Made by a program: the position numbers and the translations under genes
The notes under the pieces: model-generated
Databases searched by the model: none
What the model saw: only the letters and a program-made list of their open reading frames with translations
What the model was told of the DNA's origin: nothing
Assembly (NCBI GenBank): GCA_031274195.1
Contig: JAISQM010000009.1
Coordinates: 13,588 to 77,587, forward strand
Origin: Eubacteriales Family XIII. Incertae Sedis bacterium
GTDB taxonomy: Bacteria; Bacillota; Clostridia; Peptostreptococcales; Anaerovoracaceae
Direction: 5' to 3'
Length of the DNA stretch: 64,000 nt
Part shown: positions 5,697-50,173 of the stretch, piece after piece
How the letters are laid out: every line of letters starts with the position of its first letter
Position numbering within the stretch: position 1 is the stretch's first letter

Positions 5697-5699
5697 CCA

Positions 5700-10043: not shown

Positions 10044-10072
10044 TTGCAATTAGAATTGAGATATTATATACT
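10044..10072 (+). promoter_or_regulatory. SigA-type promoter of cassette 1 (TTGCAA-N17-TATACT)
   Basis: -35 TTGCAA at 10044-10049, a 17-nt spacer, and -10 TATACT at 10067-10072. The same architecture precedes cassettes 2 and 3. Confidence 0.6.
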
Positions 10073-10153
10073 CTAAAGCAAATAATGCCGTGCGACAAAT
10101 ACGCGAAAAAACGGTTTGTGGCAAGGTTGCAGGAAGTAGCGGGAGGGAAGATT

Positions 10154-11008
10154 ATGAGCGTTGTATTGATTACGGAAGAACATAAGTTGGCGTTTTCCGG
10201 CTATGCGCCGGAATATCTGAGAGAGGATATGCTTCAAGACGAAACGGTTTCTCTGGGAGCTGTCGATGATGAGACCGGCACGGCTGCCGGTGTACTCATT
10301 TCCAATGTGTTCAATAATTGGGTTGAGATCGTCTGGGTCTATGTGGGAGAGGAATACCGCGGACGCGGGTTTGCGCGTGAAATGCTCGAAAAGCTGATGG
10401 CGCAGGCCGTCGCTGTTCCGGATCTGGAGGGCATCACGGCGCAGCTCGGCAAGGAGGATACGTCTAAGGCGTTTCACGACCTTCTCCGCAGCGAGCTTTT
10501 CAGATTCCGCGATGAGGAGGATTCGATCTATGTCCTGACTGTCGATATGTTGGCGGGAAATTCTTTCTGGAAGGATTCGGTCGGACGCGAAAATTCGGCG
10601 GCGGTGCCGGTCGGAGAGATACCGACTTTCGTCCGCGATTCCTTTGAAAAGCACATCGCGTCCTTGCCCGAAGGCATCCCGATCCGCCGTCCTGTTCCGT
10701 GGTCGGACTGCGATCCGAATTTCAGCATGGGGTATCTCAAGAACGACAAGTTGGTCGGACTTCTGCTCATTACCCGTGACGGAGACGATGTCGAATTGTC
10801 ATTCGCGTATGCCGAACCCGGTGAAAATCTCGCGCTCGCGTCGATGTTGCGCGCGGCGGGACATAAGATAATGCAGACCATGCCGAAGGAGACTCAGATA
10901 TCGCTGATGGCGTTAAATGATACTTCCGCCTCGCTTGTTGAGAAGTTATTTCCGGAACTGGGGCGCGGGACGATGCAGAGGGCAGTCTATCCATTCTATA
11001 GAAAGTGA
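10154..11008 (+). CDS. Two-domain GNAT-like acetyltransferase, cassette copy 1
   Basis: VWVYVGEEYRGRGFAREMLEKL carries the R-x-x-G-x-A acetyl-CoA motif, followed by a second GNAT-like half (ELSFAYAEPGENLALASMLRAAG). ATG 10154 follows GGGAGGGAAG. Paralogous to 16512 and 19867. Confidence 0.7.
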   Translation: MSVVLITEEHKLAFSGYAPEYLREDMLQDETVSLGAVDDETGTAAGVLISNVFNNWVEIVWVYVGEEYRGRGFAREMLEKLMAQAVAVPDLEGITAQLGKEDTSKAFHDLLRSELFRFRDEEDSIYVLTVDMLAGNSFWKDSVGRENSAAVPVGEIPTFVRDSFEKHIASLPEGIPIRRPVPWSDCDPNFSMGYLKNDKLVGLLLITRDGDDVELSFAYAEPGENLALASMLRAAGHKIMQTMPKETQISLMALNDTSASLVEKLFPELGRGTMQRAVYPFYRK

Positions 11009-11017
11009 GGACGAAAA

Positions 11018-13213
11018 ATGAGTGTGACACGAAGTGATTTGACGGCGGGACGGGGACCGGTCCCGCATGATCCCGTACAGCAGCAACAGGAGGAGGAAGC
11101 GCAACGCTATTTGCGAGGACAGTTGTTGTCGACTGAAGCGCGAGAGGCAGACGCTGATGCTTTGGAAGTCGCTCGAAGAAAGGAAGTTTTACTGGTCGAC
11201 AAGGCCAATGCCGAGTTATTGCGTCGCGGCTTAAACGCGGATACGCATACCGCGGGTTACGTAAAGATAAGCCCTCCGGATACACAGCCGCAGATATCGA
11301 GCCCATACGGAAAATTGACGGCGCGGCAGAAACGCAAACTCCGAAGTCGGCAAGAGGATAACGAGAGAAAAGCGAGACAAAGCGGTGATCCAAAAGATCC
11401 CCTTACCGCTGTTACGGTGTCGGGCGAGACTTTACCGATGCAACGCGAGATCAAACGTCTGAATCACAAGGATAAGACGGCCAAACCGATCGAGGTGGGT
11501 GATGATTACGTATCAAGAGGAATGCAACCGCAGTATGACGCCGCTCTGTTTGATCGGTCGTTCTCCGCGAAGACGGACATTGCGATCGATATCGCGGCCA
11601 TCCGGTCTCAAATTAAAACCACCGAAGCGATTCTCCAAAAAAGAACGCAGGTCGGAGCGCGGTTGACGATGGAAGAAGATGCCACATTCGAGCATCTCGC
11701 GAAGACGAATGCCGCGGCGAAGACCGCTCTGCGCGCCATAATTGGATCCAATGGCATAGATTCGGAGACCGGGGACAGATTGTCTCCGAGGGACGCCAAT
11801 CGCTTTGGGGCGGAAAAAAACAAGGCGATTGCCGAATATCGCAGACTCACTTTGAATCGTTCGAACTTGATAGCCGATATCTTACTCGAGAAGTTGCAGC
11901 AAGATCCGAGGTTTACCGGCGCGGTGGCGGAGGAGGCAGAAAAGCGAGCGTGGGCTGCCATTGCGGAAACAGAAGGTCTGGACGAGGAGACGAGAGCGAG
12001 ATTGGTGGCTCGTGCCCAAAACGGCTCTACCCAGAGGGATCGGGACGGGGCAACGCACGATCTTGCCAAGAGAGAGGAAAACCAAAAGTATTACAAGCTC
12101 ATGCAAGAATCCGACATCAAATTCTGTGACCTCGCGTCGGCGGGGGCCTATATGAAGTTACTCAAGTTCGTGGATCAGAATCGGACAAGATACGAACAAT
12201 ATAAAAAGCAGTTTGACTTGATGTTTCGTGAGTATTCCGACCTTATGAAATTTCTCGAAGCTCAAAACAGACTGGGTTTTCGGCTTCAGCAGGTCGGCTC
12301 CCACTTCGGGATTCAGGCGGGGATGGTGACTCAAATGAACTGGAACGTCAAGGATGAGAATCCCCGGTATAAGGTTGCGCAGGTGCGAATCAGAGACTTG
12401 GGCCAAGCCATGGAGCATCTGTTGACAGGGGAGAAAACGAAAAATACGAGAGCCGCGATGTTGCTCGAAGATGAACATAATATCGTCACCGATCAGCGCC
12501 GAGAGGAAATCGAGCACGCCAAATGGAATACACCTCCGACGGATCCTGAGCAGTACGCCGAGTTTGCGGTGGCACATCTGTCGAGACGTCACCGGATGAC
12601 TGCAAATGCGAAAAAGGCGGGGATTGACGCCACTGCCGGACACAGTGCTTCGGATCGCATGAATCGCGATCTTGGTGTGTTATTGTGGAATACGGGTTTT
12701 GAGACGGACAGCAGCGGAGAGCCGCTTACCGAGCAGGATAGGACGAATAAGGGACTATGTGAACGTAATGCTCGATACCTGCGCGATAAGAGCGTTAGTG
12801 TAAATTTTGCGGACACGGTACTGAGCCCGATATTTACGGAAATCGCCAATTTTGTGCCTACACCCGAGATGTTTGAGGACTCCTATTTTTACAGTCACAT
12901 CGAACAATTAATCGGTTTCACGGAAAAGGGTCTCTCATTTGCGGATTATTGTACGGAGTATCCGGGATATGTCTCATATTTGCAAACGAACAGAAAGGCT
13001 CTCTACGAGAAGTATACGCGCCTTAGAAGTCTTCACACATGCGCCGCGTCTCTGTGTAGAAGCAAGCTCGGAATGATTGGCGTGGATATCCAACATGGGA
13101 CAATGTTTTCTGAAGAGGCGAGCGAAAGTCAGAGCAACGCATCACGGGGACTCTTTGCTCTGCAAATGGATATGTTAAAAGAGGCATTTGCTGCCTACAA
13201 CGCCGCCGGTTGA
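11018..13213 (+). CDS. Large helical protein of unknown function, cassette copy 1 (731 aa)
   Basis: Starts 10 nt after the GNAT stop. Shares sequence islands with 17375 and 20730: a basic patch (KLTARQKRKLRSRQEDNERKA), GETLPM, FD(R/P)SFS.KTD..IDI..IR, HLLTG, and IVTDQRREE. Confidence 0.6.
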   Translation: MSVTRSDLTAGRGPVPHDPVQQQQEEEAQRYLRGQLLSTEAREADADALEVARRKEVLLVDKANAELLRRGLNADTHTAGYVKISPPDTQPQISSPYGKLTARQKRKLRSRQEDNERKARQSGDPKDPLTAVTVSGETLPMQREIKRLNHKDKTAKPIEVGDDYVSRGMQPQYDAALFDRSFSAKTDIAIDIAAIRSQIKTTEAILQKRTQVGARLTMEEDATFEHLAKTNAAAKTALRAIIGSNGIDSETGDRLSPRDANRFGAEKNKAIAEYRRLTLNRSNLIADILLEKLQQDPRFTGAVAEEAEKRAWAAIAETEGLDEETRARLVARAQNGSTQRDRDGATHDLAKREENQKYYKLMQESDIKFCDLASAGAYMKLLKFVDQNRTRYEQYKKQFDLMFREYSDLMKFLEAQNRLGFRLQQVGSHFGIQAGMVTQMNWNVKDENPRYKVAQVRIRDLGQAMEHLLTGEKTKNTRAAMLLEDEHNIVTDQRREEIEHAKWNTPPTDPEQYAEFAVAHLSRRHRMTANAKKAGIDATAGHSASDRMNRDLGVLLWNTGFETDSSGEPLTEQDRTNKGLCERNARYLRDKSVSVNFADTVLSPIFTEIANFVPTPEMFEDSYFYSHIEQLIGFTEKGLSFADYCTEYPGYVSYLQTNRKALYEKYTRLRSLHTCAASLCRSKLGMIGVDIQHGTMFSEEASESQSNASRGLFALQMDMLKEAFAAYNAAG

Positions 13214-13265
13214 TGATGTTTCCGTGCACGGCGCGACAATTTTCGCCGAATCGGCGACAGATTGT

Positions 13266-13294
13266 TTGACATCAATGTCATATCCTTATATAAT
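13266..13294 (+). promoter_or_regulatory. Consensus SigA promoter upstream of acpP (TTGACA-N17-TATAAT)
   Basis: Perfect -35 at 13266-13271 and perfect -10 at 13289-13294 with a 17-nt spacer. Confidence 0.7.
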
Positions 13295-13348
13295 TTGGCG
13301 TAAGGCTTTAGTGTAGATTGAATATTGATTGGGAATATGGAGGCAATT

Positions 13349-13579
13349 ATGGCATTTGATAAGGTTAAGGCTATCATCGTTGAGCAACTTCAGGTGGAGG
13401 ATTCGGCTGTCACACTCGAGACGAGCCTGATGAAAGATCTGGAGGCGGATTCATTGGACGCTGTTGAGATCATCATGGGCATCGAAACCGAGTTTAGCAT
13501 CGAGATACCCGACGAGGACGCGGAGAAATTTCAGACCATCGGCGATATTGTAAAATACGTTGAGGAACACAAAAACTGA
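13349..13579 (+). CDS. acpP: Acyl carrier protein
   Basis: The [16 protein letters not shown] motif contains the phosphopantetheine-attachment serine (DSLD). ATG 13349 follows ATGGAGG. Confidence 0.9.
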
Positions 13580-13582
13580 TCG

Positions 13583-14215
13583 ATGAAGACACCTACCAAG
13601 ATTTCACCGGCGGTCATCAAAAGACTTCCGAGGTATCGACGGTTTTTGATTGATTTGCGGAAGAAAGGTATCGAGCGGGTATCCTCAGGGGCGCTCAGCG
13701 AGCTCATGGGATATACCGCTTCCCAGATCAGGCAGGATCTCAACAATTTCGGAGGGTTTGGGCAGCAGGGCTACGGCTATAATGTTGACGCGCTCAGCGA
13801 AGGGATTGACGCGATTTTAGGACTCTGTGCGCACTATCATATCATCATCGTCGGCGTCGGCAATCTCGGTCGTGCCGTGGCGAATTACACCTATTTCTAC
13901 AAGAACGAATTTGAGATAGGAGCGATGTTCGATATCGATCCCGCTGTAATCGGGACGCAGATAGGCGGCGTCACGGTGCAAGGCGTCGATCTGTTGTCCG
14001 ACTATCTGTCCGGACACGATGTGGACATCGGCATCATCACGACGAGTCGCAGTAGCGCCCAGAGCATCGCTGATGTCATGGTGGGCTGTGGCGTGAGGGG
14101 CATCTGGAATTTCGCGCCGACCGATCTCGAAGTGCCGGAGGGTGTGGCTCTGCAAGCCGTGCATCTGAGCGACAGCTTACACGAGCTCGTATACTACATC
14201 AACAATCAAAAATAA
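13583..14215 (+). CDS. rex: Redox-sensing transcriptional repressor Rex
   Basis: ISPAVIKRLPRYRRFL..SSGALSELMGYTASQIRQDLNNFGGFGQQGYGYNV and a Rossmann GVGNLG motif. Confidence 0.9.
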   Translation: MKTPTKISPAVIKRLPRYRRFLIDLRKKGIERVSSGALSELMGYTASQIRQDLNNFGGFGQQGYGYNVDALSEGIDAILGLCAHYHIIIVGVGNLGRAVANYTYFYKNEFEIGAMFDIDPAVIGTQIGGVTVQGVDLLSDYLSGHDVDIGIITTSRSSAQSIADVMVGCGVRGIWNFAPTDLEVPEGVALQAVHLSDSLHELVYYINNQK

Positions 14216-14296
14216 AACGATTACTGCCCGTGCGCAGTAATATAAAACGACCGCCTCCTGACAGAGACGGCCGTTTGTTCTTGTAGGTGACGCTTC

Positions 14297-14464
14297 TTAC
14301 GCTTCGACAGGCGCTTCGACGGGACACGCGCCCGCGCATGCGCCGCAATCGATGCACTTTTCCGCGTCGATTGCGTAGGGTGTTCCCTCGCTGATCGCGT
14401 CGACGGGGCATTCCGCAACGCAGGCTCCGCATGCGATACAAGAATCTTGGATTGTATAAGCCAT
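14297..14464 (-). CDS. 2x[4Fe-4S] clostridial-type ferredoxin (55 aa, absent from the ORF track)
   Basis: My own minus-strand translation gives MAYTIQDSCIACGACVAECPVDAISEGTPYAIDAEKCIDCGACAGACPVEAPVEA. It has two CxxCxxCxxxCP motifs and an AAAGGAGGA RBS 6 nt upstream of the ATG. Confidence 0.85.
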   Translation of the reverse strand: MAYTIQDSCIACGACVAECPVDAISEGTPYAIDAEKCIDCGACAGACPVEAPVEA

Positions 14465-14640
14465 TTTCATCCTCCTTTAGATATGATATAATAGCCGCAA
14501 AATGGCTATTATCGATTTGATGCCTCCCGCTTCGCGGAGATGGCACATTATAACACAACTCCTCTGCATTTATGCTATAATATACAGTCAAATCGATTAT
14601 ACCAGAACCCCGCGAATAAGTAAAGACGAAGAAATAAACG

Positions 14641-15495
14641 ATGAAAGTATACAGTTTGGTAGGAAAGAGCGGCACCGGTAAGAGTTTTCAGGCGAACAGC
14701 CTCTGCAGTGTGCGCGGCATAGAGAGCATCATCGACGATGGCCTCTTTATCGAGAACGGTCGCATTCTCGCGGGCACGTCCGCGAAACGGCAGGAAACGA
14801 AGATCAAAGCCATCAAGACCGCACTGTTCAAGGACGATGTCCATAGGAACGAGGTGATGCGGAAGATACAGGAAGTAAGACCCGCGTCCATGCTCGTCAT
14901 CGGCACCTCCGATAAGATGATCGACCAGATCACAGACAGGCTCGGACTCCCGAAGCCCTTCGAGCGCGTCGACATCGAGCAACTCACCACGGAGGAGGAG
15001 CGCGCGTTGGCCTACAGGCAAAGGTATGAGCTTGGCAAGCACATCATTCCCGTGCCAACGGTGCAGGTCAAAAAGGAATTTTCGGGATACTTCATTCATC
15101 CGGTTCGCAGGTTCAAGGACATACGGAATGATCTGCTCGGGGGCTTCAATCCGTTTACGGATCGGGATATCCGGCATCCTTTCGCGGAGCGCTCCGTCGT
15201 CAGACCGACATTCAGCTATTTGGGGAGATACGCCATCTCCGATAAAGCCATCGGAGATATCATCACATTGGTGGCCGGCGATATCGCGGAGGTTGATTCC
15301 CTCCCGCTGATTTTCGTAAAGAATCGCAAGGAAGGCGTCATCATCGAGATAGGCGTCGTCCTGCGCTATGGCAGCCGTATACCGGACGCGGCGCGGAAAC
15401 TGCAGCGCTTGATCTCGGACAAGGTGGGGCAGATGACCTCCATCAACATCCTGTCGGTAAACATCGAGATACAGGGTCTGATGTGGGATAGATAG
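14641..15495 (+). CDS. P-loop domain fused to an Asp23/Gls24-like domain
   Basis: N-terminal Walker A GKSGTGKS. The C-terminal half (YAISDKAIGDIITLVAGDIAEV...VIIEIGVVLRYGSRIPDAARKLQRLISDKVGQMTSINILSVNIEI) matches the Asp23 family pattern. An extended -10 (TGCTATAAT) lies at 14573-14581. Confidence 0.65.
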   Translation: MKVYSLVGKSGTGKSFQANSLCSVRGIESIIDDGLFIENGRILAGTSAKRQETKIKAIKTALFKDDVHRNEVMRKIQEVRPASMLVIGTSDKMIDQITDRLGLPKPFERVDIEQLTTEEERALAYRQRYELGKHIIPVPTVQVKKEFSGYFIHPVRRFKDIRNDLLGGFNPFTDRDIRHPFAERSVVRPTFSYLGRYAISDKAIGDIITLVAGDIAEVDSLPLIFVKNRKEGVIIEIGVVLRYGSRIPDAARKLQRLISDKVGQMTSINILSVNIEIQGLMWDR

Positions 15496-15527
15496 AGCGG
15501 TGCGGGCAACATATCGGAGGATGCGTT

Positions 15528-16319
15528 ATGCCGGGGGACTTGGTTAAACAGGTATTTGAAAACGTGGGAAATTTCAAGCTCGCCGGTATCTTTGACTGCG
15601 GCCAGTGCTTTCGGTGGAACAGGGAAGCGGACGGCAGCTACAGCGGCATCGTCGAGAGCGCCTTTGCCAACATCTCGTTTTCGCCATACGACGGCAAGGA
15701 AAATGAAGGAATCGTAACGATCTGGAGCAACCACCTCGCCCAATTCCCATCCCTGCGGGAAAAATTCTGGCGTAACTATTTGGACTTAGACCGGGACTAC
15801 GCCGCCGTCAAGCACCTATTCCCTGCCGAAGACCTCGTGACGGCCAAGGCCGCCGGCGTACTCGGCGGCATGAGGATACTGAATCAGAACAAATGGGAGA
15901 CGCTCATCTCGTTTTTGATCTCCCAGAGCAACGATCTCCCTCGCGCAAAGTCCTGCATCGAGCGGCTGTGTGTAGAACACGGCAGGAGGATAGGGTGCCT
16001 CAAAGGGAGGGCGATCTACACATTCCCTTCCATAGACAGACTGTCCGTGCTCAGAGAACACCACCTCGACAATTGCCGGCTCGGATATCGCGCCAAATAC
16101 ATCGTGGAGACCGCGCGCCGGATCGCCTACGACGGCGGAGCTTTCCTCGAAACGGGGGAGAGCATCCCCACAGCTAAAATAGAAAAATATCTCCTGTCGC
16201 TATCGGGCGTGAGCCCCGAGGTCGCGAACTGCGTCATGCTCTTTTCGATGAAGAAAATCGAAATATTTTCGCGAATCGCCTGTAATGTTTCCGAAAATCA
16301 GAAGTATATGTTGCTGTAA
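15528..16319 (+). CDS. 8-oxoguanine DNA glycosylase/AlkA-like HhH-GPD protein, apparently degenerate at the 3' end
   Basis: The N-terminus (FDCGQCFRWN) and HhH region (LLSLSGVSPEVANCVMLF) fit the Ogg/AlkA family. The usual catalytic Lys position reads E, and the ORF ends (SRIACNVSENQKYMLL) where a PVD-type catalytic Asp motif is expected. Confidence 0.55.
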   Translation: MPGDLVKQVFENVGNFKLAGIFDCGQCFRWNREADGSYSGIVESAFANISFSPYDGKENEGIVTIWSNHLAQFPSLREKFWRNYLDLDRDYAAVKHLFPAEDLVTAKAAGVLGGMRILNQNKWETLISFLISQSNDLPRAKSCIERLCVEHGRRIGCLKGRAIYTFPSIDRLSVLREHHLDNCRLGYRAKYIVETARRIAYDGGAFLETGESIPTAKIEKYLLSLSGVSPEVANCVMLFSMKKIEIFSRIACNVSENQKYMLL

Positions 16320-16376
16320 GCTTCTCGTCGAAGTATATTTTTTGACCGAGATGTGAAATTTGTACAGATAACATAC

Positions 16377-16405
16377 TTGCATTATATGTCGAAGCCCTAT
16401 ATACT
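16377..16405 (+). promoter_or_regulatory. SigA-type promoter of cassette 2 (TTGCAT-N17-TATACT)
   Basis: -35 at 16377-16382, -10 at 16400-16405, 17-nt spacer. The TATATACTTTAAG block is shared with cassette 3. Confidence 0.6.
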
Positions 16406-16511
16406 TTAAGTGAAACTTAAAGATTAAAGTGTTGAAAGGTGTGCGCATTCGTAAATAACCGGGACAGTGTTCTGTTTGTGACTCCGCCCGGGGTGGTAGA
16501 AAGGAGAAAAT

Positions 16512-17378
16512 ATGGGTTTGATCTTACTTACGGAAGAAAACAAGTCGGCGTTTCTCAGTTATGTGCCGTCATATCTCCACGCGGAATTATCCGAACCGGA
16601 GTCGGTATCGATCGGCACCTTTGACGACGATTCCGGCATCGCGACCGGCGTGCTCGTGGGGAACGTATTCAACAACTGGGTCGAGATACTCTGGGTATAT
16701 GTGGCGGAGGAATACCGCGAGCACGGTTTGGCGCGGAGCATGCTCAGAGAGCTGATCGCCCATGCCGGCGATGTCCGTGATATAGACGGCATCACAGCTC
16801 AGCTCGGCGACAAGGACGCGCACATGCCGCTGTACAATCTTCTCCGAAGCGAACTTTTCGTCTTCCGCAACGAGGAAGATTCTATCTACACGCTGACCGT
16901 CTCGATGCTGACGGGCAATCCTTTCTGGAGCGACGCGGCGCATAAAGGCGGCTCGGAGGTGATGTCGCTCAAAGATCTGCCGACGTACATCCTCGATTCT
17001 TTTGAAAAGAACATTGCCGCATTACCCGAGGGCGTGCCGGTCAGCCGGCCCGTACCGTGGGACGACTGCGACCTGAATTTCAGCGTGGGATATCTTAAAG
17101 AGGACAAGATGAAAGGCCTGCTTCTCATCGCCCGCGAGGACGAGGATATGGAGCTGTCGTTCGCCTATGCCGACCCCGAGGAAAAGCTGGCGCTCGCGGC
17201 CATGTTGCGCGCGTCGGGAAACAAGGTGATCGAATCCATGCCCCCGGAAACCATGATATCGTTGACGGCACTGAACAGCGCTTCAGCTGCCATCGTTGAA
17301 AAATTATTCCCGGACATCGAGCGCAGGACAGTACTGCGAGCGATCCGGCCATTCGGCGTGAGAGGAGATATGCAATGA
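16512..17378 (+). CDS. Two-domain GNAT-like acetyltransferase, cassette copy 2
   Basis: 288 aa with the LWVYVAEEYREHGLARSMLREL motif. By eye about three quarters of residues match copy 3. RBS GAAAGGAGAA. Confidence 0.7.
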   Translation: MGLILLTEENKSAFLSYVPSYLHAELSEPESVSIGTFDDDSGIATGVLVGNVFNNWVEILWVYVAEEYREHGLARSMLRELIAHAGDVRDIDGITAQLGDKDAHMPLYNLLRSELFVFRNEEDSIYTLTVSMLTGNPFWSDAAHKGGSEVMSLKDLPTYILDSFEKNIAALPEGVPVSRPVPWDDCDLNFSVGYLKEDKMKGLLLIAREDEDMELSFAYADPEEKLALAAMLRASGNKVIESMPPETMISLTALNSASAAIVEKLFPDIERRTVLRAIRPFGVRGDMQ

Positions 17379-19663
17379 TATCGCAAGAAGAACTGGCACG
17401 GCAACAGCAGGCGATCTTTGATGAGGTGCGCGCCCGTGAGAGGGAGCGAGGGCCGGACACCGTCCCCGACTTGACCGAGGATAATTTGTCCAAAATACGC
17501 TCTGACATGGTTGGGATAATTGACCGTCAACTCGCCGAGGAACTGCGGGCGGGTATGACGATGGAGCAGATGGAAACGCAAAAGCGCCGTGACGTGTTAA
17601 ACCTAAAGCCGCCGGCCGAGTTGCCCGAGCTTCCGGAAGATGAAACTGTGAAGCTGTCAGCGTCAAAGCGCAAGAAAGCCCGCAAGAGACAGCGGGACAA
17701 CGAAGAAAAAGCGACGCGCTTGGGCTATGAGGCGGCGACGGGGGAAACGCTTCCCATGAGAGCGCAGATAGTCAAATCGGATAAAATCAAAAGCAAACAA
17801 AAGGATTCGGCTGCCAAGGCGCAGACCGAAGCCGCCGCGAAAAGGCTCGCCGCGAGCGCATTCTTTGACGTAGATATGTTCAATCCATCGTTTAGCCTAA
17901 AGACGGATACGTCAATAGATATAACCGCGATTCGGCGAAAAATCGATGAAGCCGACTTGACCGTGCGTACGTATCGGGAGCTCCCCGATTCCGAGGCGGG
18001 TACGCTGGAAGTGAAAGCGCAGTTTCTCCATCTCGAAGAAACGATGAAAGCGGCGCAGGCTGCCTTGACAGTGATACTTGGATGCAATGGCTTAAGCGAT
18101 AAGGGAGAGAAACTTTCCCGAGAGCAGGCCGGCAAATGCAAAGAGGAAAAAGCTGCGGCGATCGACAAATACCGCAGCCTTGTTTCAAATCGCCGGGAGT
18201 TCTTGGTCAAAGCCACTTACGACGAACTGTCTCGCAACGAAAAATTCACCGCCGCACTGGAAGTCCAAATCCTAAGTGCTAAGGCATCGAGCCCCGGTGA
18301 AGTATTTGGAGATGATGCGCTCTTGGATGAGCTTAGAACAACGATTGCCAACCCTGAAACTTCGCAAAGAGACAGGGCGGATGCGGAGAAGGAGCTTGCA
18401 AAATTTGAAGCGGTTCAACCCTACAAGGAATGGTATGAAAAGACAGGCATCGCCTATGGATATTTCAATATCTTGCAAATGGATGTGGAGCTCCGCAAGT
18501 CTTTGGATGATTATCCCGAAGCATATGCGAAGCATAAAGACGCAATCGATCAGATGTTTACCGAATATCTTTCCCTCCAAAAGTTTGTATGCGAAAAAAA
18601 TGCTATCAGGAGAGCGATCACTTTCGGAGGACTGAATCCCGATCTCTATTCTGTGAATATGGAAGTCGCGTTGAGTAACTATATTACTGAAGATCCAAAA
18701 TATAATGCTGCGCAGCAGAAAGGTGCTGCCTTGCGTGGGGCTATAACGCATCTTTTGACCGGAGCGAAAGCATTTCCGGACGCTCTGATACTGCTTCAGG
18801 AGGAATACAGGATCACCACCGATCAGCGTCGGGATGATCTAAAGGATATCGAAACGCTCGAGGGGATGAAGAAACAAAACGAAGCCTACGAGCAGGAACA
18901 GCGTGAAATCAACGAGAGGAAACAGCGTGAAGCGCGTGAGTGGACGGAGCGGGAGACGTCCCCTACGGATCCGAATGGATACGCCCATTACATATCTAAG
19001 CGTGGGAAAGAGCAACTCCAAAGAACCGGGAATATATCTCGGTTTGTGACAAAAATTTACACCGCGCACGTTGGTGGCGATAATTTTTCGAATCAATACG
19101 TGGTAGATGGACACCAAATAGATCCACGTATATTTACTTCCTATTTGGAAGGGTTCGATCTGGATGAACAAGGAGAGCCCCTCACCTTACGTGACGCGCA
19201 CGCCCGGGAGAAGTGCCGTGACTTTGCCGAGGCTGTTTTCGCAAACGACCATGAGAAAACAAAATCCCATCTTGATGCTTTCATACAAGAGCTGACCGCT
19301 TTCAACTTAACCCCCTCAATGCTTGAAGACGAGGAATATCTTGTCCGTCATAACCACGAACTCATGTCTCTTTCGTTGAAGCATGGGTACCTCGAAAATC
19401 TTGAAACATCTTTTCCGTGGTATTTTGAGAGCTTAAGCGCGCCCATCAAAGAGTGGCTTGCCAAAGTCCGCGACCTATATTCCTATGCCATCATGCTGAT
19501 AACTGCCAAACGAAACATCCTCGGCGTAGACCATGATTCGGTACTGAAAGACGACGAGTCCTCAAAAGCCATAGGGCAGGATGGGCAGGAGGTATGGAAT
19601 ACGTGTATGCCGCGGTTCAAAGCGGAGTGGGAAAGAATTTATGGAGGCGGCACGGCTGTGTAG
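17375..19663 (+). CDS. Large helical protein of unknown function, cassette copy 2 (762 aa)
   Basis: The ATG overlaps the GNAT stop (ATGA), indicating translational coupling. It shares the same sequence islands as copies 1 and 3 (KLSASKRKKARKRQRDNEEKA, GETLPM, FNPSFSLKTDTSIDI). Confidence 0.6.
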   Translation: MISQEELARQQQAIFDEVRARERERGPDTVPDLTEDNLSKIRSDMVGIIDRQLAEELRAGMTMEQMETQKRRDVLNLKPPAELPELPEDETVKLSASKRKKARKRQRDNEEKATRLGYEAATGETLPMRAQIVKSDKIKSKQKDSAAKAQTEAAAKRLAASAFFDVDMFNPSFSLKTDTSIDITAIRRKIDEADLTVRTYRELPDSEAGTLEVKAQFLHLEETMKAAQAALTVILGCNGLSDKGEKLSREQAGKCKEEKAAAIDKYRSLVSNRREFLVKATYDELSRNEKFTAALEVQILSAKASSPGEVFGDDALLDELRTTIANPETSQRDRADAEKELAKFEAVQPYKEWYEKTGIAYGYFNILQMDVELRKSLDDYPEAYAKHKDAIDQMFTEYLSLQKFVCEKNAIRRAITFGGLNPDLYSVNMEVALSNYITEDPKYNAAQQKGAALRGAITHLLTGAKAFPDALILLQEEYRITTDQRRDDLKDIETLEGMKKQNEAYEQEQREINERKQREAREWTERETSPTDPNGYAHYISKRGKEQLQRTGNISRFVTKIYTAHVGGDNFSNQYVVDGHQIDPRIFTSYLEGFDLDEQGEPLTLRDAHAREKCRDFAEAVFANDHEKTKSHLDAFIQELTAFNLTPSMLEDEEYLVRHNHELMSLSLKHGYLENLETSFPWYFESLSAPIKEWLAKVRDLYSYAIMLITAKRNILGVDHDSVLKDDESSKAIGQDGQEVWNTCMPRFKAEWERIYGGGTAV

Positions 19664-19724
19664 ACGCGCGTGGGTAAATCCCCTCGAAACAAGCGTCGGG
19701 AAAATGATCCAAGACGGATAAGTG

Positions 19725-19753
19725 TTGCGTTTTTCGCCAAATCATTATATACT
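19725..19753 (+). promoter_or_regulatory. SigA-type promoter of cassette 3 (TTGCGT-N17-TATACT)
   Basis: -35 at 19725-19730, -10 at 19748-19753, 17-nt spacer. Confidence 0.6.
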
Positions 19754-19866
19754 TTAAGCGCGATTATAGAGTAGTGTGTTGAAGCAGATTGTTCTTTTAA
19801 TAACATCCGTCCGGGATAACACTCTGTCTGTTATGATGCCGCAGTGTGTGGCGAGAAGGAGAAACT

Positions 19867-20733
19867 ATGGGATTGGTTTTGCTTACAGAAGAAAATAAAT
19901 CGGCGTTTATCGGTTATGTACCGACATATATACAATCGGAACTGTCCGAACCCGAAACTGTTTCGATAGGCGTCTTTGACGACAATTCCGGCATAGCGAC
20001 CGGCGTGCTTGTGTCGACGGTATTCAACAATTGGGTGGAGATCATCTGGATATATGTGGCAGAGGAAAGCCGCGAGAGCGGTTTGGCGCGGAGTATGCTC
20101 AGAATGTTGTCGAGCCACTCTTTCGATGTCCGGGATATAGAGGGTATCACAGCCCAGCTCGGCGACAAAAATACACACATGCAGTTGTACAATCTTCTCC
20201 GCAGTGAGGGCTTCACTTTTCGCAATGAGGAGGATTCCGTCTATATCCTGACCGTCGGTATGCTGACGGGCAATCCTTTCTGGAGCGACGCGGTAAACAA
20301 AGGCGGACCGGCGGTGATGGCGCTCAAGGAGTTGCCGTCCCATGTTCGCGACTCCTTCGAGAAACATATAGCCGCTTTGCCCGAAGGTGTGCCGGTCGGC
20401 AGACCCGTTCCGTGGGATGAATGCGATCTGAACTTCAGCGTAGGATATCTCAGAGAAGGTAAGATGACGGGGCTGTTGCTCATCGCCCGCGATGAGGGGG
20501 ATATGGAGCTGTCGTTCGCCTATGCCGAACCCGGAGAAAAGCTCGCGCTCGTGGCCATGTTGCGCGCGGCGGGCAACAAAGCGATCGAGACTCTGCCACC
20601 GGAAACCACGATATCGCTGACGGCGCTGAATGATGTGTCGGCAGCCATTGTTGAAAAAATATTCCCGGATATAACTCGCAGGACAGTACTTAGAGCGATC
20701 CGGCCATTTGGAGCGAAAGGAGATGCGAAATGA
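19867..20733 (+). CDS. Two-domain GNAT-like acetyltransferase, cassette copy 3
   Basis: IWIYVAEESRESGLARSMLRML motif. ATG 19867 follows GAAGGAGAA. Close paralogue of 16512. Confidence 0.7.
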   Translation: MGLVLLTEENKSAFIGYVPTYIQSELSEPETVSIGVFDDNSGIATGVLVSTVFNNWVEIIWIYVAEESRESGLARSMLRMLSSHSFDVRDIEGITAQLGDKNTHMQLYNLLRSEGFTFRNEEDSVYILTVGMLTGNPFWSDAVNKGGPAVMALKELPSHVRDSFEKHIAALPEGVPVGRPVPWDECDLNFSVGYLREGKMTGLLLIARDEGDMELSFAYAEPGEKLALVAMLRAAGNKAIETLPPETTISLTALNDVSAAIVEKIFPDITRRTVLRAIRPFGAKGDAK

Positions 20734-22337
20734 GCATGACACCTGAAGAATTGCAACGGGAAAGGCAACGCCGGGACTCATTGACGGTCGCTGAGCAGCA
20801 GGTGCAACAGCAACCTGTACAGCAATACACTATTCCCGATCTGACCGAAGAGCAGCATGAGGCATTACGGAAAAAAACATTTGAATTGAAAGACAGCGTC
20901 ATCGCCGAACAGTTGCGTCTCGGCATAATACAAACCGAGAATGTGAGGGAGATGAAAGCGGAACTCACCCTACTTTCTCCCCCGGCGAGTACTCTGCCCG
21001 CGATGCCGGTGGATGATGAACAAGCCAAAATGCTGAAACTGTCGGCGTCGAAGCGAAAGAAAGCTCGCAAAAGACAAGAGGATAACACGAAAAAAGCGCA
21101 GAGGCAAAACTATCAGTCGCCGACGGGGCAAACACTTCCTATGGCGGAACAGATAAAAAAACAAAAGCGTCAAGAAGCGAAACGCGGCCCGAGAGAAATA
21201 GAAAACTGGAGAGAGATTGGCTTAGATTCAACGGTTCTATATCATACCGATCTGTTCGACCCATCGTTCGACGTGAAGAAGGATACTTCGATAAACGTAG
21301 GCCAGATTCGGCAGGAGATTCAGACAGCCGAGGCGGTTTTGCGTCAGAAGGCCGACAGCAACGGGGAAGCTTTCAATCCTGAGGGAGAAGCCCGTTTCAG
21401 CGTTCTTCAGCAGACGACCGATGCGGCGAAGGCGGCATTGTACGCCGTCGTCGGCTCGCATGGCGTAAATTCAGACGATGGAACGCCCCTTCCCGAGGAG
21501 GAAGTTCTCAGATGTCGCGAGACGAAAGATGCGGCGATCGCCAAATATCGCGAGCTTGTTTGGAATCGCGGGATGCACGTAGCAAAACTCACTTACGAGA
21601 ATCTGCAGCAAAACGAAGCTTACCGGGAGCAGTACGCTTATCAGGTCGAGAGCTCGCGGTCAGGTTTATCGCGGGAACACGGCCTGTCTGAAGACACGCA
21701 AAGCAGGCTTGAAGCTGCAATAACGACCGCCAATACGGAGACAGACAGGACTCAAACGCGGCACCAACTTGATAAGAGGAGAAAGAACCTGCCATATTTG
21801 GATGAGTTGCGAGATTCCGGTATCGAGTACTCCTCTTACGGAGCAGCGGGGGTTCATATAGATCTCCTTCGGCTTAAGGCGGAACACGCTGATCGATACG
21901 CGGCGAATAAAGCCTTGTTCGATCGGATGTATGCGGAATTCCTCTCCGCTGAAAAGTATGTGCAGGAACGCGAGATGGCTGTAAAAGCGGTAGGGGGTGC
22001 GACCACGCTTGATGATGAGCTCTTTTCGGGTCAGACGGAAAACAATCTATATAATTACCTGGTTGACCGCAATCCCAAAATGGCTGCTGCGGATCATAGA
22101 GCCTCCGTCCTAATGCAAGCCATGACATATCTTCTGACCGGAAACGAAGATGGACTGTCTCCGGAGGGTAGGATTGCATTGGAAAGAGATTTCAATATCG
22201 TTACAGCGAAGCGGCAGGAGGAGAAAGACGCGCTCGCACGGCTTCAGGAGATGGATGAGCACAACGATCTCATCGCGCGCGCGGAGCGGGAGCGGCTCGA
22301 GCGGGATGCGCGGAAGCAGACATTGCCGCCCGAATAG
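20730..22337 (+). CDS. Large helical protein, cassette copy 3 (535 aa, lacks the C-terminal module of copies 1 and 2)
   Basis: The ATG overlaps the GNAT stop (ATGA). It shares KLSASKRKKARKRQEDN, GQTLPM and FDPSFDVKKDTSINV, and ends at ...QTLPPE, aligned with T(S/P)PTDP in copies 1 and 2. Confidence 0.6.
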   Translation: MSMTPEELQRERQRRDSLTVAEQQVQQQPVQQYTIPDLTEEQHEALRKKTFELKDSVIAEQLRLGIIQTENVREMKAELTLLSPPASTLPAMPVDDEQAKMLKLSASKRKKARKRQEDNTKKAQRQNYQSPTGQTLPMAEQIKKQKRQEAKRGPREIENWREIGLDSTVLYHTDLFDPSFDVKKDTSINVGQIRQEIQTAEAVLRQKADSNGEAFNPEGEARFSVLQQTTDAAKAALYAVVGSHGVNSDDGTPLPEEEVLRCRETKDAAIAKYRELVWNRGMHVAKLTYENLQQNEAYREQYAYQVESSRSGLSREHGLSEDTQSRLEAAITTANTETDRTQTRHQLDKRRKNLPYLDELRDSGIEYSSYGAAGVHIDLLRLKAEHADRYAANKALFDRMYAEFLSAEKYVQEREMAVKAVGGATTLDDELFSGQTENNLYNYLVDRNPKMAAADHRASVLMQAMTYLLTGNEDGLSPEGRIALERDFNIVTAKRQEEKDALARLQEMDEHNDLIARAERERLERDARKQTLPPE

Positions 22338-22409: not shown

Positions 22410-24212
22410 GTGGAGAATTTGAACAACATCAATTTGTTGCCATTTGAGAAGAATCGATATTATCCCGGAAAATTGCTCACCTCGGTCGATTTTCTTTCCG
22501 AGCAGATGTACATGAGTAATAAACGGCGGTTTATGAACGATCTGTTGTACGGAGCGGGTATCATATGCGGGTTGAATGTGAACAACCTCGACGATACTTC
22601 GCTTATGGTCGAGTCAGGCGTGGCGATCGACGGACTTGGACGTGAGATCGTTTTGGAAAATTCCGTTGTGCGTAAGGTTTCGGCGATCGATGGCTATGAT
22701 GAGACAGAAAGCGGCAGGTTGTTGCTCTGTATCCGGTACGACGAGGAAGATATCCAACCGGTATACGCGATCGGCGCCGCGGATAAGGCGAGCGGGCATG
22801 AGATGAACCGCACTCAAGAGGGCTGTAAGCTCTTTTTGACGGATGCGGATTCCCGGGTGTTGACGATTCCCGAATCCGGATTTTTGAGCTCCGCGACGAT
22901 TTACGCCGATTCGGATTATTCCGTGACGTTGGCGTGTCCGTCGGTCGTGCCGAGCGGGCATAACGTCCGCGTCGCGATCACCGTTGAGAAGCTGTCCAAT
23001 GAAAATTCCCCGATCGTCTTAAACGGCCTATTTGGTACACCGGCGTTCGTCGGTGCCGACGGGAAGCATGGTTTTGTGGCCGATATCTCGGAGTTGATGT
23101 TGCTCGCGGGAGAGCGCAAACAGTTTGAATATCATTTGACCGCGAGAGCCGGCGGTAAGGCCGACACGATGATACTGGGAAAGCCGGACGACATCGAGGT
23201 CTCCGTGAATAGTGAAAAGAAGACGATCTCCGGGAATATCATGTTGCACCTGTCCATTTCCCCGGAGAGCCCTCGGGAGATCATTGAGCGTGAATTGGCC
23301 AAGACCAGTCTGGAGGAACGCGCGCTCCACCGTTCGTATGAATATGTGACGTTGGCTGAGGTGACCATCGAGCGCAGCAGCACCACGGCCATCATCAGCG
23401 ACATCCGGGATGACGCGATCAGATACTATATCCCGACCATCGCGAATAACGCGCGTAGGCACGAATATTCCGAATGGTTTGAGACCGCGAAACACAAGGA
23501 GCGGGTGGGGGTGAGTGCCGCTACCACGACGGAGGTCGATCATTATCCGACGGTTCGGGAGCCGATCTACGCGACCGGTGTGTGTGAGATACCGCTTGGC
23601 ACTGAGTACAAGAAAGGCGAGATACATCTTTCCAATGAGGTGATTCACGGACTCGGCGGCGGGGATGTGCACGTTGCGGTCGGTTGCGAGTGTCTGGCTT
23701 ACGATGCCAAATTGGATAAACAGGCCAAAAATACGGTCTATGGCGATTCGACGTTTTTCAAGGCGGACGCACTGCCCATTCCAAACGCGGAGTTGGCTGT
23801 GCGCGTGATGAACGACCGCGGGAGCTTCATTGTAGGCGCGAAGCTGAACGCGCGCACGGATTTTGTCGTGCTGCTCGTGCGCTGGACGGCCACAAAGCTG
23901 CCGAGCGGCGAGGAACGCGGCGCGTTGACCAGATTCGGGAATGACGCGGCCATCATGCCGGCGGAGCCGACGATCGTCGTCGCGCCCAACGAGAGCCGGT
24001 TTATCGACGTCAAGTTCAAAAATATGACGCCGTGCGCGTTGGAATATCAATTGACGGAGAAAAATTCAGGTTCGATCACAGTTGATGGCATCTACACGGC
24101 TTCAAATAAAGAAGGGGTATATGAGATTCACATCTACAGTGCGGACAATCCATATATCTCCACATACGCTTATGTCGTGGTGAAGGAGAAAGACAGCGAG
24201 GATGGGAAGTAG
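22410..24212 (+). CDS. Hypothetical 600-aa soluble protein, first gene of the long array containing the contractile injection system
   Basis: GTG start after AAAGGCGG; no TM segment visible. The N-terminus (YYPGKLLTSVDFLSEQMYMSNKRRFMNDLLYGAGIICGL) and a beta-rich, Ig-like-looking C-terminus (YQLTEKNSGSITVDGIYTASNKEGVYEIHIYS) give no family I can name with confidence. Confidence 0.5.
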   Translation: MENLNNINLLPFEKNRYYPGKLLTSVDFLSEQMYMSNKRRFMNDLLYGAGIICGLNVNNLDDTSLMVESGVAIDGLGREIVLENSVVRKVSAIDGYDETESGRLLLCIRYDEEDIQPVYAIGAADKASGHEMNRTQEGCKLFLTDADSRVLTIPESGFLSSATIYADSDYSVTLACPSVVPSGHNVRVAITVEKLSNENSPIVLNGLFGTPAFVGADGKHGFVADISELMLLAGERKQFEYHLTARAGGKADTMILGKPDDIEVSVNSEKKTISGNIMLHLSISPESPREIIERELAKTSLEERALHRSYEYVTLAEVTIERSSTTAIISDIRDDAIRYYIPTIANNARRHEYSEWFETAKHKERVGVSAATTTEVDHYPTVREPIYATGVCEIPLGTEYKKGEIHLSNEVIHGLGGGDVHVAVGCECLAYDAKLDKQAKNTVYGDSTFFKADALPIPNAELAVRVMNDRGSFIVGAKLNARTDFVVLLVRWTATKLPSGEERGALTRFGNDAAIMPAEPTIVVAPNESRFIDVKFKNMTPCALEYQLTEKNSGSITVDGIYTASNKEGVYEIHIYSADNPYISTYAYVVVKEKDSEDGK

Positions 24213-25101: not shown

Positions 25102-25115
25102 AAAGGAATTGACTC

Positions 25116-33531: not shown

Positions 33532-34110
33532 ATGGCGGATTATTCAATCATATCGGATATCAGCGCACACATCGTGCGGACGCTCAGAGAGAAGATGTGC
33601 CCCGAGCCCATCCCCTCTCCGAACAACATCGATGTCTCGTCTCCGGCGGAGCAGGATGTTGACTACATTCTCGGTCTCTATCTCTACGATATCGCCGAGG
33701 AATTGAGCCTGACGACATCGCCCTTGGTCAGAGCCGGAGGGACGCGCCTGACGAAGCCGTCAAAGCCCTATGCGCTTTACTATATGCTGTTTATCAACGG
33801 TTCGTCGCAGATGGGACTGAAGGCGCATGACATCCAAAAGATCATCGGCCGGGCGGCGCAGATCGTCAATGACGGGAATGTGGTCGAACCGAGGGTCGTA
33901 CAACCGTGGCTCGAATTCGATGAGGCGCCGATCATAATTACACCGGCACGGATGCCGCTCGAGGAAAAAGTCCGCGTGTGGTCCGCGATCAATAAGCCGT
34001 ATCAGGTCAGCATGTTTTACAAAGTGGCACCCGTGATGCTGTCGAGCGAAGTCGTTGTGGATCCGCCGCGCGTAACGGAAGCCTTGTTCAATATCGATAT
34101 GGGGCAATAG
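33532..34110 (+). CDS. DUF4255 / Afp16(Pvc16)-like tail terminator-cap protein
   Basis: 192 aa. N-terminal ISDISAHIVRTLREKM... and ALYYMLFINGSS... match the DUF4255 pattern, and it sits directly upstream of the sheath as in many eCIS loci. Confidence 0.7.
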   Translation: MADYSIISDISAHIVRTLREKMCPEPIPSPNNIDVSSPAEQDVDYILGLYLYDIAEELSLTTSPLVRAGGTRLTKPSKPYALYYMLFINGSSQMGLKAHDIQKIIGRAAQIVNDGNVVEPRVVQPWLEFDEAPIIITPARMPLEEKVRVWSAINKPYQVSMFYKVAPVMLSSEVVVDPPRVTEALFNIDMGQ

Positions 34111-34129
34111 GAAAGGAAGGAGTGCAGTC

Positions 34130-34942
34130 ATGGCAGATGTGACAATAACGCATCGAATAGATTTGGCCGTTTCATTTGTTGACAACATCTCGGGCGCGCC
34201 CGCGCGCGGGCATGTGTTGTTGAGCAGGAACGGCGCAATCGTGCGTTATCTCATGAGTTCTGATGGGATTGCACTGTTTTCGGATGTCGGTCGCGAAGAC
34301 TTCGTTTTGGGCATAAACGTATCGGGCTATGAATATGAGGAGTTGCAGGTTGAATACGCAAATCTCGACGAGGGCTTTCCGCTGATAGAGGTATCGCTGA
34401 TTCCGCAGGACACGCTCGGCGACGTCTATACGACGATCGACGGTACGCTTTCCGGTCTTATCGCCGCGGATGCGGTGTGCGTCGAAAGAACCGTGTGGTC
34501 TGTTTTGAGCGTCGATCAACGCAAAAGGTTGCTGACGGTGGAGAGCCAATACAAGAGAGAGATAGGCGGGAAATCCTATGGCATCATCGCGAAGGACAAT
34601 GAGAGCTATGCTCCCATTGCAATTATTAAGAAGATATCATACGGTATATATAAGATAGACTCCGTGCCTACGGAAGATATATTGGGGTTGCGTTTGGCAT
34701 ATCGCGTGGCGGGTCGTGTCCGCGACGGGACGTGCTTGCTTCGGCTCCCGCACAGATCAGGAAACGCAAATTGGATCATTCGTGCGGAGACGGAATCGGG
34801 AAATACATTCCGGACATTCGACCCGAGCGAAGCCGAACTAAGCACGGCCGGCAGGCGAATCGGCATAAGCGACATCATGAGCCGAGCAGCGCCTACCGCG
34901 AAAAACACAGATAAACACGACGCGGAAATGAAAGGAGGATAG
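34130..34942 (+). CDS. Hypothetical protein (CIS-associated, beta-rich N-terminus)
   Basis: 270-aa ORF between the cap and sheath genes. No domain recognised. Confidence 0.45.
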   Translation: MADVTITHRIDLAVSFVDNISGAPARGHVLLSRNGAIVRYLMSSDGIALFSDVGREDFVLGINVSGYEYEELQVEYANLDEGFPLIEVSLIPQDTLGDVYTTIDGTLSGLIAADAVCVERTVWSVLSVDQRKRLLTVESQYKREIGGKSYGIIAKDNESYAPIAIIKKISYGIYKIDSVPTEDILGLRLAYRVAGRVRDGTCLLRLPHRSGNANWIIRAETESGNTFRTFDPSEAELSTAGRRIGISDIMSRAAPTAKNTDKHDAEMKGG

Positions 34943-35061
34943 CGTTGGGCAAACATAGAGAAGTATACGTTAAAACATGTTTACTATGTGCGACAGCACC
35001 AAGTTATATCGTAGTTGATTAGAAGGGAGGAAGGTTTGGATTTTTTCCAAACCGGACAATT

Positions 35062-47990: not shown

Positions 47991-48016
47991 GGGGCCGATT
48001 CCAAAAGGAGGACACA

Positions 48017-50116: not shown

Positions 50117-50173
50117 ATATCCTATGGTTAATCGAAACTATTAATACGCGGCTCCGAGGTGGGAGGAACATTT

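Follow-up and report, generated by a model that had tools for sequence, protein, structure and literature searches.

Paired tandem-GNAT and large helical protein genes beside a contractile injection system in an Anaerovoracaceae bacterium: candidate payloads with a companion enzyme

RESULTS

Three GNAT and large-protein cassettes lie next to a contractile injection system

We analyzed a stretch of 64,000 nucleotides (here, the window) from an Eubacteriales Family XIII. Incertae Sedis bacterium of the Anaerovoracaceae (assembly GCA_031274195.1, contig JAISQM010000009.1, positions 13,588 to 77,587 of the forward strand), in which three cassettes, each made of a GNAT-type acetyltransferase gene followed by the gene of a large protein, lie beside a contractile injection system (CIS). 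An earlier reading of the sequence alone (here, the original prediction) had described three units with one architecture, namely, promoter, leader, GNAT gene, and coupled large protein. Open reading frame (ORF) calling placed all six genes on the plus strand at the predicted positions, and the observation of three such cassettes is confirmed (Table 1). Family hidden Markov models (HMMs) detected exactly three GNAT genes and three large genes in the window, and another contig of the same metagenome assembly encodes a fourth paralogous large protein, P0008 (716 aa). The ATGA overlaps predicted at 17375 and 20730 were confirmed, while the gap before the large gene at 11018, given as 10 nt, measures 9 nt. 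The 72-nt gap between cassette 3 and the next ORF, at 22410, was correctly described, as was the absence of an obvious terminator there. The injection system itself is also real, with cap, sheath, tube, spike, and baseplate genes and an AAA ATPase.

The promoter-like sites of cassettes 2 and 3 score under the -35 threshold of the consensus scan, and alignment showed that these two cassettes have promoter and leader sequence in common. None of the leaders matched an Rfam family (E ≤ 1), which leaves a known riboswitch in them unsupported. The scan for terminators gave no site after cassette 2 or cassette 3 and a weak one 3' of cassette 1 (13243 to 13257). The longest GNAT ORFs start at 10085 (copy 1) and 19846 (copy 3); the true starts are nevertheless likely to be 10154, 16512, and 19867, given the GGAGG-type ribosome-binding site before each of them and the match in length to the deposited proteins (284, 288, and 288 aa). 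Cassette 1 comes after a block of tsaB, rimI-like, and tsaD genes.

Table 1. Features of the window, modules of the large-protein family, and gene context of related loci
Feature	Position	Strand	Description
Promoter-like site, cassette 1	10044..10072	+	TTGCAA, 17 nt, TATACT; consensus scan; leader of ~80 nt follows
Tandem-GNAT acetyltransferase, copy 1	10154..11008	+	284 aa; Acetyltransf_1 E 4e-10; RGRGFA; same as deposited P0004
Large helical partner, copy 1	11018..13213	+	731 aa; modules A, B, C; no family match
Promoter-like site, cassette 2	16377..16405	+	TTGCAT, 17 nt, TATACT; by eye; leader of ~105 nt follows
Tandem-GNAT acetyltransferase, copy 2	16512..17378	+	288 aa; Pfam E 7e-7; two GNAT folds in AlphaFold model
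Large helical partner, copy 2	17375..19663	+	762 aa; modules A, B, C; ATGA overlap with GNAT gene
Promoter-like site, cassette 3	19725..19753	+	TTGCGT, 17 nt, TATACT; by eye; leader of ~110 nt follows
Tandem-GNAT acetyltransferase, copy 3	19867..20733	+	288 aa; 77% identity to copy 2; RESGLA
Large helical partner, copy 3	20730..22337	+	535 aa; modules A and B only (profile positions 1-529), no C; ATGA overlap
First gene of CIS-containing array	22410..24212	+	600 aa; N-terminal CIS13 (tail-fibre) domain, NCBIfam NF053767 E 6e-23
CIS structural block	33532..51277	+	Pvc16 cap, sheath, four tube genes, spike, baseplate J, Tail_P2_I; Pfam, NCBIfam baseplate
CIS-type AAA ATPase	51566..53890	+	774 aa; Pfam AAA E 2e-27
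Module A	profile ~5-300		basic patch with invariant Lys, [ED]-T-L-P-M, NGVD
Module B	profile ~350-520		HLLTG, G-I-x-T-x-x-R (residues 459-485 in copy 2)
Module C	profile ~500-715		D-x-R-x-L...G-x-P-x-T-x-x-D
Pair at end of CIS operon	L019	one strand	tube, tube, spike, gp25, baseplate, Tail_P2_I, STAS, family protein, GNAT
CIS genes near pair	L017 (3.25-Mb genome)		baseplate trio, SpoIIE regulator, ATPase 66% identical to the window's, second AAA ATPase, ADP-ribosyltransferase toxin
Pair and ATPase	L018		one GNAT, two family genes, ATPase (63%), then homologues of window genes 22410 and 24202
ATPase near pair	L020		88% identical to the window's, with SpoIIE regulator
ATPase near pair	L005/L006		81% identical to the window's, with second AAA ATPase
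ATPase remnant near pair	L001		C-terminus, ~92%, fused to M23 peptidase ORF, among recombinases
DUF4157 protein near pair	L015		eCIS_core/DUF4157 protein with Ntox11 toxin
Toxin near pair	L014		ADP-ribosyltransferase toxin and weak ATPase-like fragment only; not among the eight linked loci
ADP-ribosyltransferase/DnaJ scaffold family	L014 6174-8486; L017 14691-17261 (-); L006 8346-10967		putative effectors
Family linking Ntox11 toxin with 763-aa protein	L015 14784-17375 (-); L006 13119-15410		putative effectors

The large partners belong to a rare, modular, and all-helical family

The large partners had been thought to share only short islands of sequence. We found them to be 28 to 34% identical across ca. 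470 to 720 aligned residues (E values of 1e-50 to 1e-73), so that, as judged from sequence, they are clearly paralogues along their whole shared length. The statement that no known family or catalytic motif can be recognized in them held in profile, PDB, and fold libraries alike. The three proteins had no match in Pfam, NCBIfam, PHROGs, or PADLOC (the last scanned with eight proteins and zero matches), and single-sequence and profile searches against PDB sequences returned only noise (E > 0.2). Modeling with AlphaFold and comparison with Foldseek, which had been proposed as a check, were carried out for copy 2, and the model, built with 31 family sequences, was confident (pLDDT 87.3) and wholly alpha-helical. 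It had no fold neighbor in two libraries (nothing at an E value of <1 in the PDB and nothing at <0.05 in a viral library); the weak, nonsignificant matches were to generic helical bundles and tape-measure-like helices.

A word-indexed protein search recovered only the query itself and one relative. When 1.84 billion cluster representatives were searched exhaustively with an HMM, 88 of them were assigned to the family at an E value of ≤1e-3, the three of the window included, and 46 at ≤1e-10, almost all of them metagenome singletons. Three modules could be delimited (Table 1). About 25 members have the arrangement A-B-C, module C precedes module B in a group of proteins of some 500 aa, and in some members module C is repeated three or four times. 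Some relatives carry further, C-terminal domains of effector type: P0023 (1554 aa) has an ADP-ribosyltransferase (ART) exoenzyme domain (ADPrib_exo_Tox, E value of 1.5e-22) and a DGNCLF OTU-like motif, P0057 and P0033 have C-terminal Fam20C/PI3-PI4-kinase-like domains, and the large partner in locus L001 also has an OTU-like motif. On the evidence of these searches and of the predicted model, the large proteins form a rare, previously unannotated modular family without a fold neighbor in the two libraries.

We regard the large proteins as soluble; overall they range from acidic to neutral, with a very high proportion of charged residues. A sequence check revealed no signal peptide and no hydrophobic or transmembrane segment in them, which fits nonclassical export. 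Eight of 25 aligned members start with Met-Cys, which is unusual for so rare a residue as Cys; a uniform acylation site at Cys-2 was rejected, since the remaining members start otherwise.

The GNAT partner is a conserved tandem acetyltransferase

Copy 1 of the GNAT is 58% identical to both copy 2 and copy 3, and for copies 2 and 3 the measured identity (77%) agrees with the three quarters of residues estimated by eye in the original prediction. With a cutoff of 20.7 bits for Pfam Acetyltransf_1, copies 1 and 2 were both above it (40.4 and 29.9 bits), and copy 3 fell just under it (20.6 bits), yet this is the copy that is 77% identical to copy 2. The R-x-x-G-x-A acetyl-CoA motif is kept in all three, as had been read by eye (REHGLA, RGRGFA in copy 1, and RESGLA in copy 3), and in the form [RQ]-x-x-G-x-[GA] it is retained in 12 of 16 GNAT homologues, including all of those with an A-B-C-type partner. 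This motif, which binds the pyrophosphate of acetyl-CoA, follows beta-strand 4 and occurs only in the N-terminal half of the protein.

The AlphaFold model of GNAT copy 2 (pLDDT 76) consists of two beta-sheet/helix units, residues 1 to 130 and 150 to 280. When it was compared by Foldseek with the PDB, 459 matches were obtained at an E value of ≤0.001, the top 50 being all GNAT-family acetyltransferases, with tandem GNATs at the head of the list: 2wpw of the clavulanate pathway, 7q3a, MAB_4324c, VipF, and MshD (E values of 3e-10 to 1e-9, TM scores of 0.4 to 0.66). In sequence, the best matches of the family profile in the PDB were the N-alpha-acetyltransferases Naa50 (E value of 2e-7), ARD1, RimI, and Naa60, while the NCBIfam rimI match was weak (19 bits against a cutoff of 86). 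Scanned against GTDB representative genomes, the cassette GNAT profile found no relative; the large proteins, as aligned, diverge too much for pattern scans.

The original prediction had likened the cassettes to the adaptor or chaperone plus polymorphic effector pairs of other injection systems. The CIS-linked polymorphic effector half of this comparison gained support (see below), while the other half did not, because the retention of the acetyl-CoA motif among homologues speaks for an enzymatically active GNAT and against a passive adaptor or chaperone. A toxin-antitoxin module of the TacT/AtaT type, in which a single-domain GNAT of ca. 175 aa is encoded with a small ribbon-helix-helix antitoxin, was rejected, given that the cassette GNAT has two domains and ca. 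285 aa and that its partner has 535 to 1554 aa and no ribbon-helix-helix domain.

The pair is conserved across loci and recurs next to CIS genes

We compared 12 independent loci, namely, the window and L001, L003, L005/6, L013, L014, L015, L016, L017, L018, L019, and L020. In all 12, a full-length tandem-GNAT homologue adjoins a gene of the large-protein family, with GNAT identities of 25 to 42% and family-HMM E values of 1e-47 to 1e-133. With A-B-C members, the GNAT gene is usually upstream and the genes overlap by 1 to 8 nt, while it is downstream in L013 and with the C-B members of L017, L019, and L010; the reversed order in L013, L017, and L019 indicates that it is the pairing that is kept and not the order of the genes. 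Module B is the sole module present in all GNAT-paired family partners. More distant GNAT relatives adjoin unrelated large proteins, that is, an Ntox11 protein (L015), a 763-aa protein (L006), and a 1203-aa protein (L012).

The proposal of the original prediction that co-occurrence with CIS loci be examined was followed on the available locus context. We considered a locus CIS linked when CIS structural genes, a close homologue of the window CIS ATPase, or DUF4157 lay within 10 kb. Eight of the 12 loci were linked in this sense (the window, L019, L017, L018, L020, L005/6, L001, and L015), whereas for a random genome position we would expect linkage in a few per cent of cases at most, and in CIS-bearing genomes alone (an estimate, not a computed value). 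The ATPase homologues near the pairs were 63 to 88% identical to the window's when intact (tblastn), with one additional remnant of ~92%. In L019, where the pair ends the CIS operon, the CIS proteins are 39 to 62% identical to those of the window, and in L018 the homologue of the window gene at 22410 (40% identity) also lies 3' of the cassettes. Taken together, these contexts make an association of the GNAT and large-protein pair with CIS very probable. DUF4157, reported to be a highly specific and toxin-associated marker of extracellular CIS (eCIS) (PMC8213781), was absent from all window ORFs scanned by profile and among the loci was seen in L015 only.

Other features of the window and of the related loci

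Between cassette 3 and the Pvc16 gene, six ORFs (600, 299, 779, 407, 683, and 901 aa) occupy positions 22410 to 33494 of the plus strand. The first has the CIS13 domain, the fourth has MORN repeats, and the other four are without a family match; the first two have homologues in L018. Right after the ATPase gene, a 128-aa Cys-rich ORF (53909 to 54295, plus strand; MSICVCTGAGMLCSFG...) looks like a PAAR-like/DUF4280 spike-tip protein. The plus strand also encodes a fourth GNAT of 310 aa (54696 to 55628; Acetyltransf_1 E value of 9e-6), of a family different from that of the cassette GNATs, which sits between the CIS ATPase and a SpoIIE-type regulator and has a 28%-identical homologue at the same position in L017. 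Likewise flanking the CIS on the plus strand are a STAS-like anti-anti-sigma protein (54343 to 54675) and a dCache-HAMP-SpoIIE(PP2C)-HATPase_c_2 fusion (55585 to 58227). Since STAS, SpoIIE, and HATPase_c_2 genes recur by the CIS in L017, L019, and L020, a conserved partner-switching pathway is suggested to control the injection system.

A small protein of 71 to 82 aa adjoins the CIS-type ATPase in L006 (16348 to 16596), L017 (17430 to 17666, minus strand), and L018 (15524 to 15739). The L006 and L017 versions are 49% identical, and a weak match (E value of 5e-4) lies at 51393 to 51506 of the window, in the 289-nt gap just upstream of the ATPase gene. At the other end of the window, positions 4001 to 7025 have a GC content of 0.44, compared to ~0.53 to 0.56 around them, and include a minus-strand AAA_14/DUF4143 ATPase gene (5700 to 7025); this stretch may be a foreign insertion.

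Two more modular families of putative effectors were found near the pairs (Table 1). In the first, an ART domain is swapped for a DnaJ domain while the scaffold stays the same; the second links an Ntox11 toxin with the 763-aa protein of L006. Over its C-terminal 340 aa, the DUF4157 protein of L015 is 50% identical to the Ntox11 protein. Directly upstream of the GNAT and of the 1554-aa OTU/ART member, L003 has three unannotated paralogues (4748 to 8974, plus strand; 555, 403, and 427 aa), 57 to 80% identical in their N-terminal parts. The ATPase remnant of L001 is part of a chimeric ORF (7436 to 8089, minus strand) with an M23 peptidase at its N terminus, whose last 73 residues are ~92% identical to the C terminus of the window ATPase. 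The ATPase part is made of two pieces with a 52-aa deletion, and the ORF adjoins integrase and Bro-N genes; a mobile element, or else misassembly, seems to have broken up a CIS ATPase gene here.

DISCUSSION

Probable payload proteins with a proposed modifying enzyme

The reading that we favor is that the cassettes encode payload proteins of the neighboring CIS, each with a dedicated modifying enzyme. Taken as a whole, we give it an even chance of being right, and its parts differ in strength. That the large proteins are CIS cargo is what we infer with somewhat better than even confidence; that the large partner is the substrate of its GNAT we put forward more tentatively, as slightly less probable than its negation. 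The reading of the original prediction, a CIS-linked effector from an undescribed payload family, is supported.

The large protein would act as a polymorphic carrier or effector, its conserved helical modules being recognized for loading and, in some relatives, carrying C-terminal toxin domains (ADP-ribosyltransferase, OTU-like protease, or Fam20C-like kinase). The presence of ART, OTU-like, and Fam20C-like kinase domains at the C termini of relatives fits a polymorphic effector. The CIS-type AAA ATPase that recurs beside the pairs probably loads the large protein, a role proposed on the precedent of Photorhabdus, in which Pvc15-type ATPases are reported to load effectors via N-terminal signals (PMC11495950 and PMC9054023). 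In the GNAT, the N-terminal half keeps the acetyl-CoA site and the degenerate C-terminal GNAT fold would hold a protein substrate, most likely the cotranslated partner, which could be acetylated or acylated at its N terminus or at a conserved residue of module B.

In several respects, the cassettes resemble eCIS-associated toxins and the payloads of PVC and Afp, which are loaded by Pvc15/Afp15. Their genes adjoin a CIS operon or stand at its 3' end, and members of the family are repeatedly accompanied by a CIS-type AAA ATPase and in one locus by DUF4157. The proteins are large, lack a Sec signal, and occur as variable paralogues with relatives that have ART and other toxin domains, as in eCIS toxins (PMC8213781 and PMC11495950). 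They differ from these toxins in having a conserved helical scaffold of 500 to 700 aa, without DUF4157 or likeness to described payloads, in the lack of a toxin domain in the window copies, and in the dedicated tandem GNAT beside each family member. As in polymorphic toxins, what comes after modules A and B, or after A, B, and C, depends on the member: an ART, an OTU-like, or a kinase-like domain or nothing. Unlike in polymorphic toxins, there is no recognized immunity family downstream, the downstream genes differing between the loci examined; the N-terminal modules do not match LXG, MuF, Rhs, PAAR, or DUF4157, and the accessory gene encodes an enzyme. From phage or conjugative polyvalent and MuF-type injected proteins, the pair is set apart by the lack of a match to PHROGs, to viral contigs (GNAT profile), or to viral folds.

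A working model for a dedicated maturation enzyme is provided by the RTX toxin-activating acyltransferases (HlyC/RtxC), in which the gene of a small acyltransferase with a GNAT-like fold lies beside that of the exported toxin (HlyA/RtxA) that it modifies. Here also, a small acyltransferase-type gene adjoins and is coexpressed with that of a large protein. However, HlyC-type enzymes are single domain and use acyl-ACP, whereas the cassette GNAT is tandem, has an acetyl-CoA-type motif, and does not match the HlyC family in Pfam, and the export machine is different. Another secreted substrate acetylated by a dedicated enzyme is EsxA of the mycobacterial ESX-1 system. The catalytic half of the GNAT has its best sequence-profile matches in RimI and Naa50/Naa10/Naa60, but those enzymes are single-domain proteins of 150 to 200 aa; the cassette GNAT has a second, degenerate GNAT fold fused to it and scores far under their family cutoffs, and the N termini of its partners are heterogeneous (MS, MI, MG, MC, MT, and MN). 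With MshD, VipF, MAB_4324c, and the tandem GNAT of the clavulanate pathway, it shares the two-GNAT fold and a CoA motif in one half only, although sequence identity is 10 to 16% and genomic contexts and substrates are unrelated. To our knowledge, none of these four pairs with a CIS payload.

Several observations weigh against a payload and its modifying enzyme. In the window, genes for Rex, an Asp23-like protein, and OGG lie between cassettes 1 and 2, and each cassette has its own promoter-like site, so that simple membership in the CIS operon does not describe the cassettes. None of the three window large proteins has a recognizable toxin or catalytic domain in Pfam, NCBIfam, PDB, or fold searches, and copy 3 consists of modules A and B alone. 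Among the other loci, L003/4, L016, and L013 show no CIS gene within 10 kb (judged by local context alone), and in L014 nothing beyond a gene for an ART toxin and a weak ATPase-like fragment is seen. Moreover, the loci come from a narrow set of related gut Clostridia metagenomes and are not fully independent. As regards the enzyme, action of the GNAT on its neighbor is our inference, and the variation of residue 2 within the family (Cys, Ser, Gly, Thr, Ala, Asn, Ile, and Arg) weakens a single rule of N-terminal acetylation.

Alternative explanations

The tandem GNAT could itself be the injected effector, as is VipF in Legionella, with the large helical protein as the carrier or adaptor to the CIS. 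We consider this improbable. VipF is indeed among the best fold matches (6wqb, E value of 5e-10) and also among the sequence-profile matches, but with TM scores of 0.40 to 0.47, it is no better than the metabolic tandem GNATs. Of the two proteins, it is the GNAT that shows the higher conservation (58 to 77% versus 28 to 34%), and it is the window large proteins that lack a toxin domain; nevertheless, among relatives the toxin domains sit on the large protein, the usual sign of a delivered protein and not of an adaptor. Furthermore, unrelated large proteins (Ntox11 in L015 and the 763-aa protein in L006) can also have the GNAT as a neighbor, and some of them bear toxin domains.

Equally improbable, in our view, is that the GNAT is an immunity or antidote protein, acetylation either inactivating the large toxin in the producer or shielding the target of the producer. 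Tight linkage and translational coupling are known from toxin-immunity pairs, and a GNAT directly follows an ART toxin gene in L014 and an Ntox11 toxin gene in L015; in addition, eCIS toxins often have no identified immunity gene (PMC8213781). Immunity proteins, however, normally covary with their toxin domain and diverge fast, whereas the GNAT is the slow-evolving partner and tracks the helical modules whatever the C-terminal domain, including in copy 3, which has none. Its gene also lies mostly before the large gene.

Slightly less probable still is a self-standing toxin or mobile-element module (e.g., a polyvalent protein) or a substrate of some other export route that merely shares variable islands with CIS. 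The pair of L001 is found between a serine recombinase and integrase/Bro-N genes, a serine recombinase is near the pair in L019, CIS genes are missing from the surrounding 10 kb in three loci, and every cassette has a promoter of its own, the first cassette being among housekeeping genes. Set against this are the 8 of 12 CIS-linked loci, compared to the few per cent that we estimate for a random position, and the L019 pair, which lies inside a CIS operon. The large proteins also lack a match in PHROGs or PADLOC and have no viral fold match, and the scan of viral contigs with the GNAT profile gave no relative.

The least probable alternative gives the large proteins an accessory part in the structure or assembly of the particle (as scaffolds, lumen plugs, or factors for fibre assembly). 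It would suit their all-helical, highly charged nature without enzymatic motif, their weak and nonsignificant viral fold matches to tape-measure-like long helices, and the fibre-like gene adjoining cassette 3, but it is at odds with three to four divergent paralogues per genome, with the toxin-domain fusions, and with a copy number and position that vary by locus, since structural parts are normally single copy and syntenic. A tape measure or other structural part was rejected on account of the multicopy gene and the toxin-domain fusions, and an anti-phage defence system was rejected on account of the zero PADLOC matches and the CIS context.

Implications for payload selection

While eCIS-associated polymorphic toxins are known as a class, this helical family has neither annotation nor fold neighbor. 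Beyond Photorhabdus, there is little understanding of payload choice and loading in eCIS, and for Gram-positive anaerobes there is almost none. Full-text literature searches that combined CIS with acetyltransferase or GNAT found no paper tying a GNAT to a CIS, and two large surveys of eCIS toxins (one of them PMC8213781) do not mention an acetyltransferase or GNAT.

Returning to payload proteins with a dedicated modifying enzyme, one extension of this reading is that acetylation or acylation by the tandem GNAT licenses loading, the ATPase recognizing and packing only a partner marked at its N terminus or in module B. We regard this as rather unlikely. We know of no CIS or type VI secretion system for which such a posttranslational "ticket" has been described. 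If the GNAT does modify the cargo, this would bring an enzymatic step into payload selection and provide a handle for engineers of programmable injection systems. The family in any case gives a recurring payload candidate with a conserved scaffold, an assayable companion enzyme, and a recurrent ATPase partner, and its natural toxin-domain fusions mark sites at which heterologous cargo could be attached.

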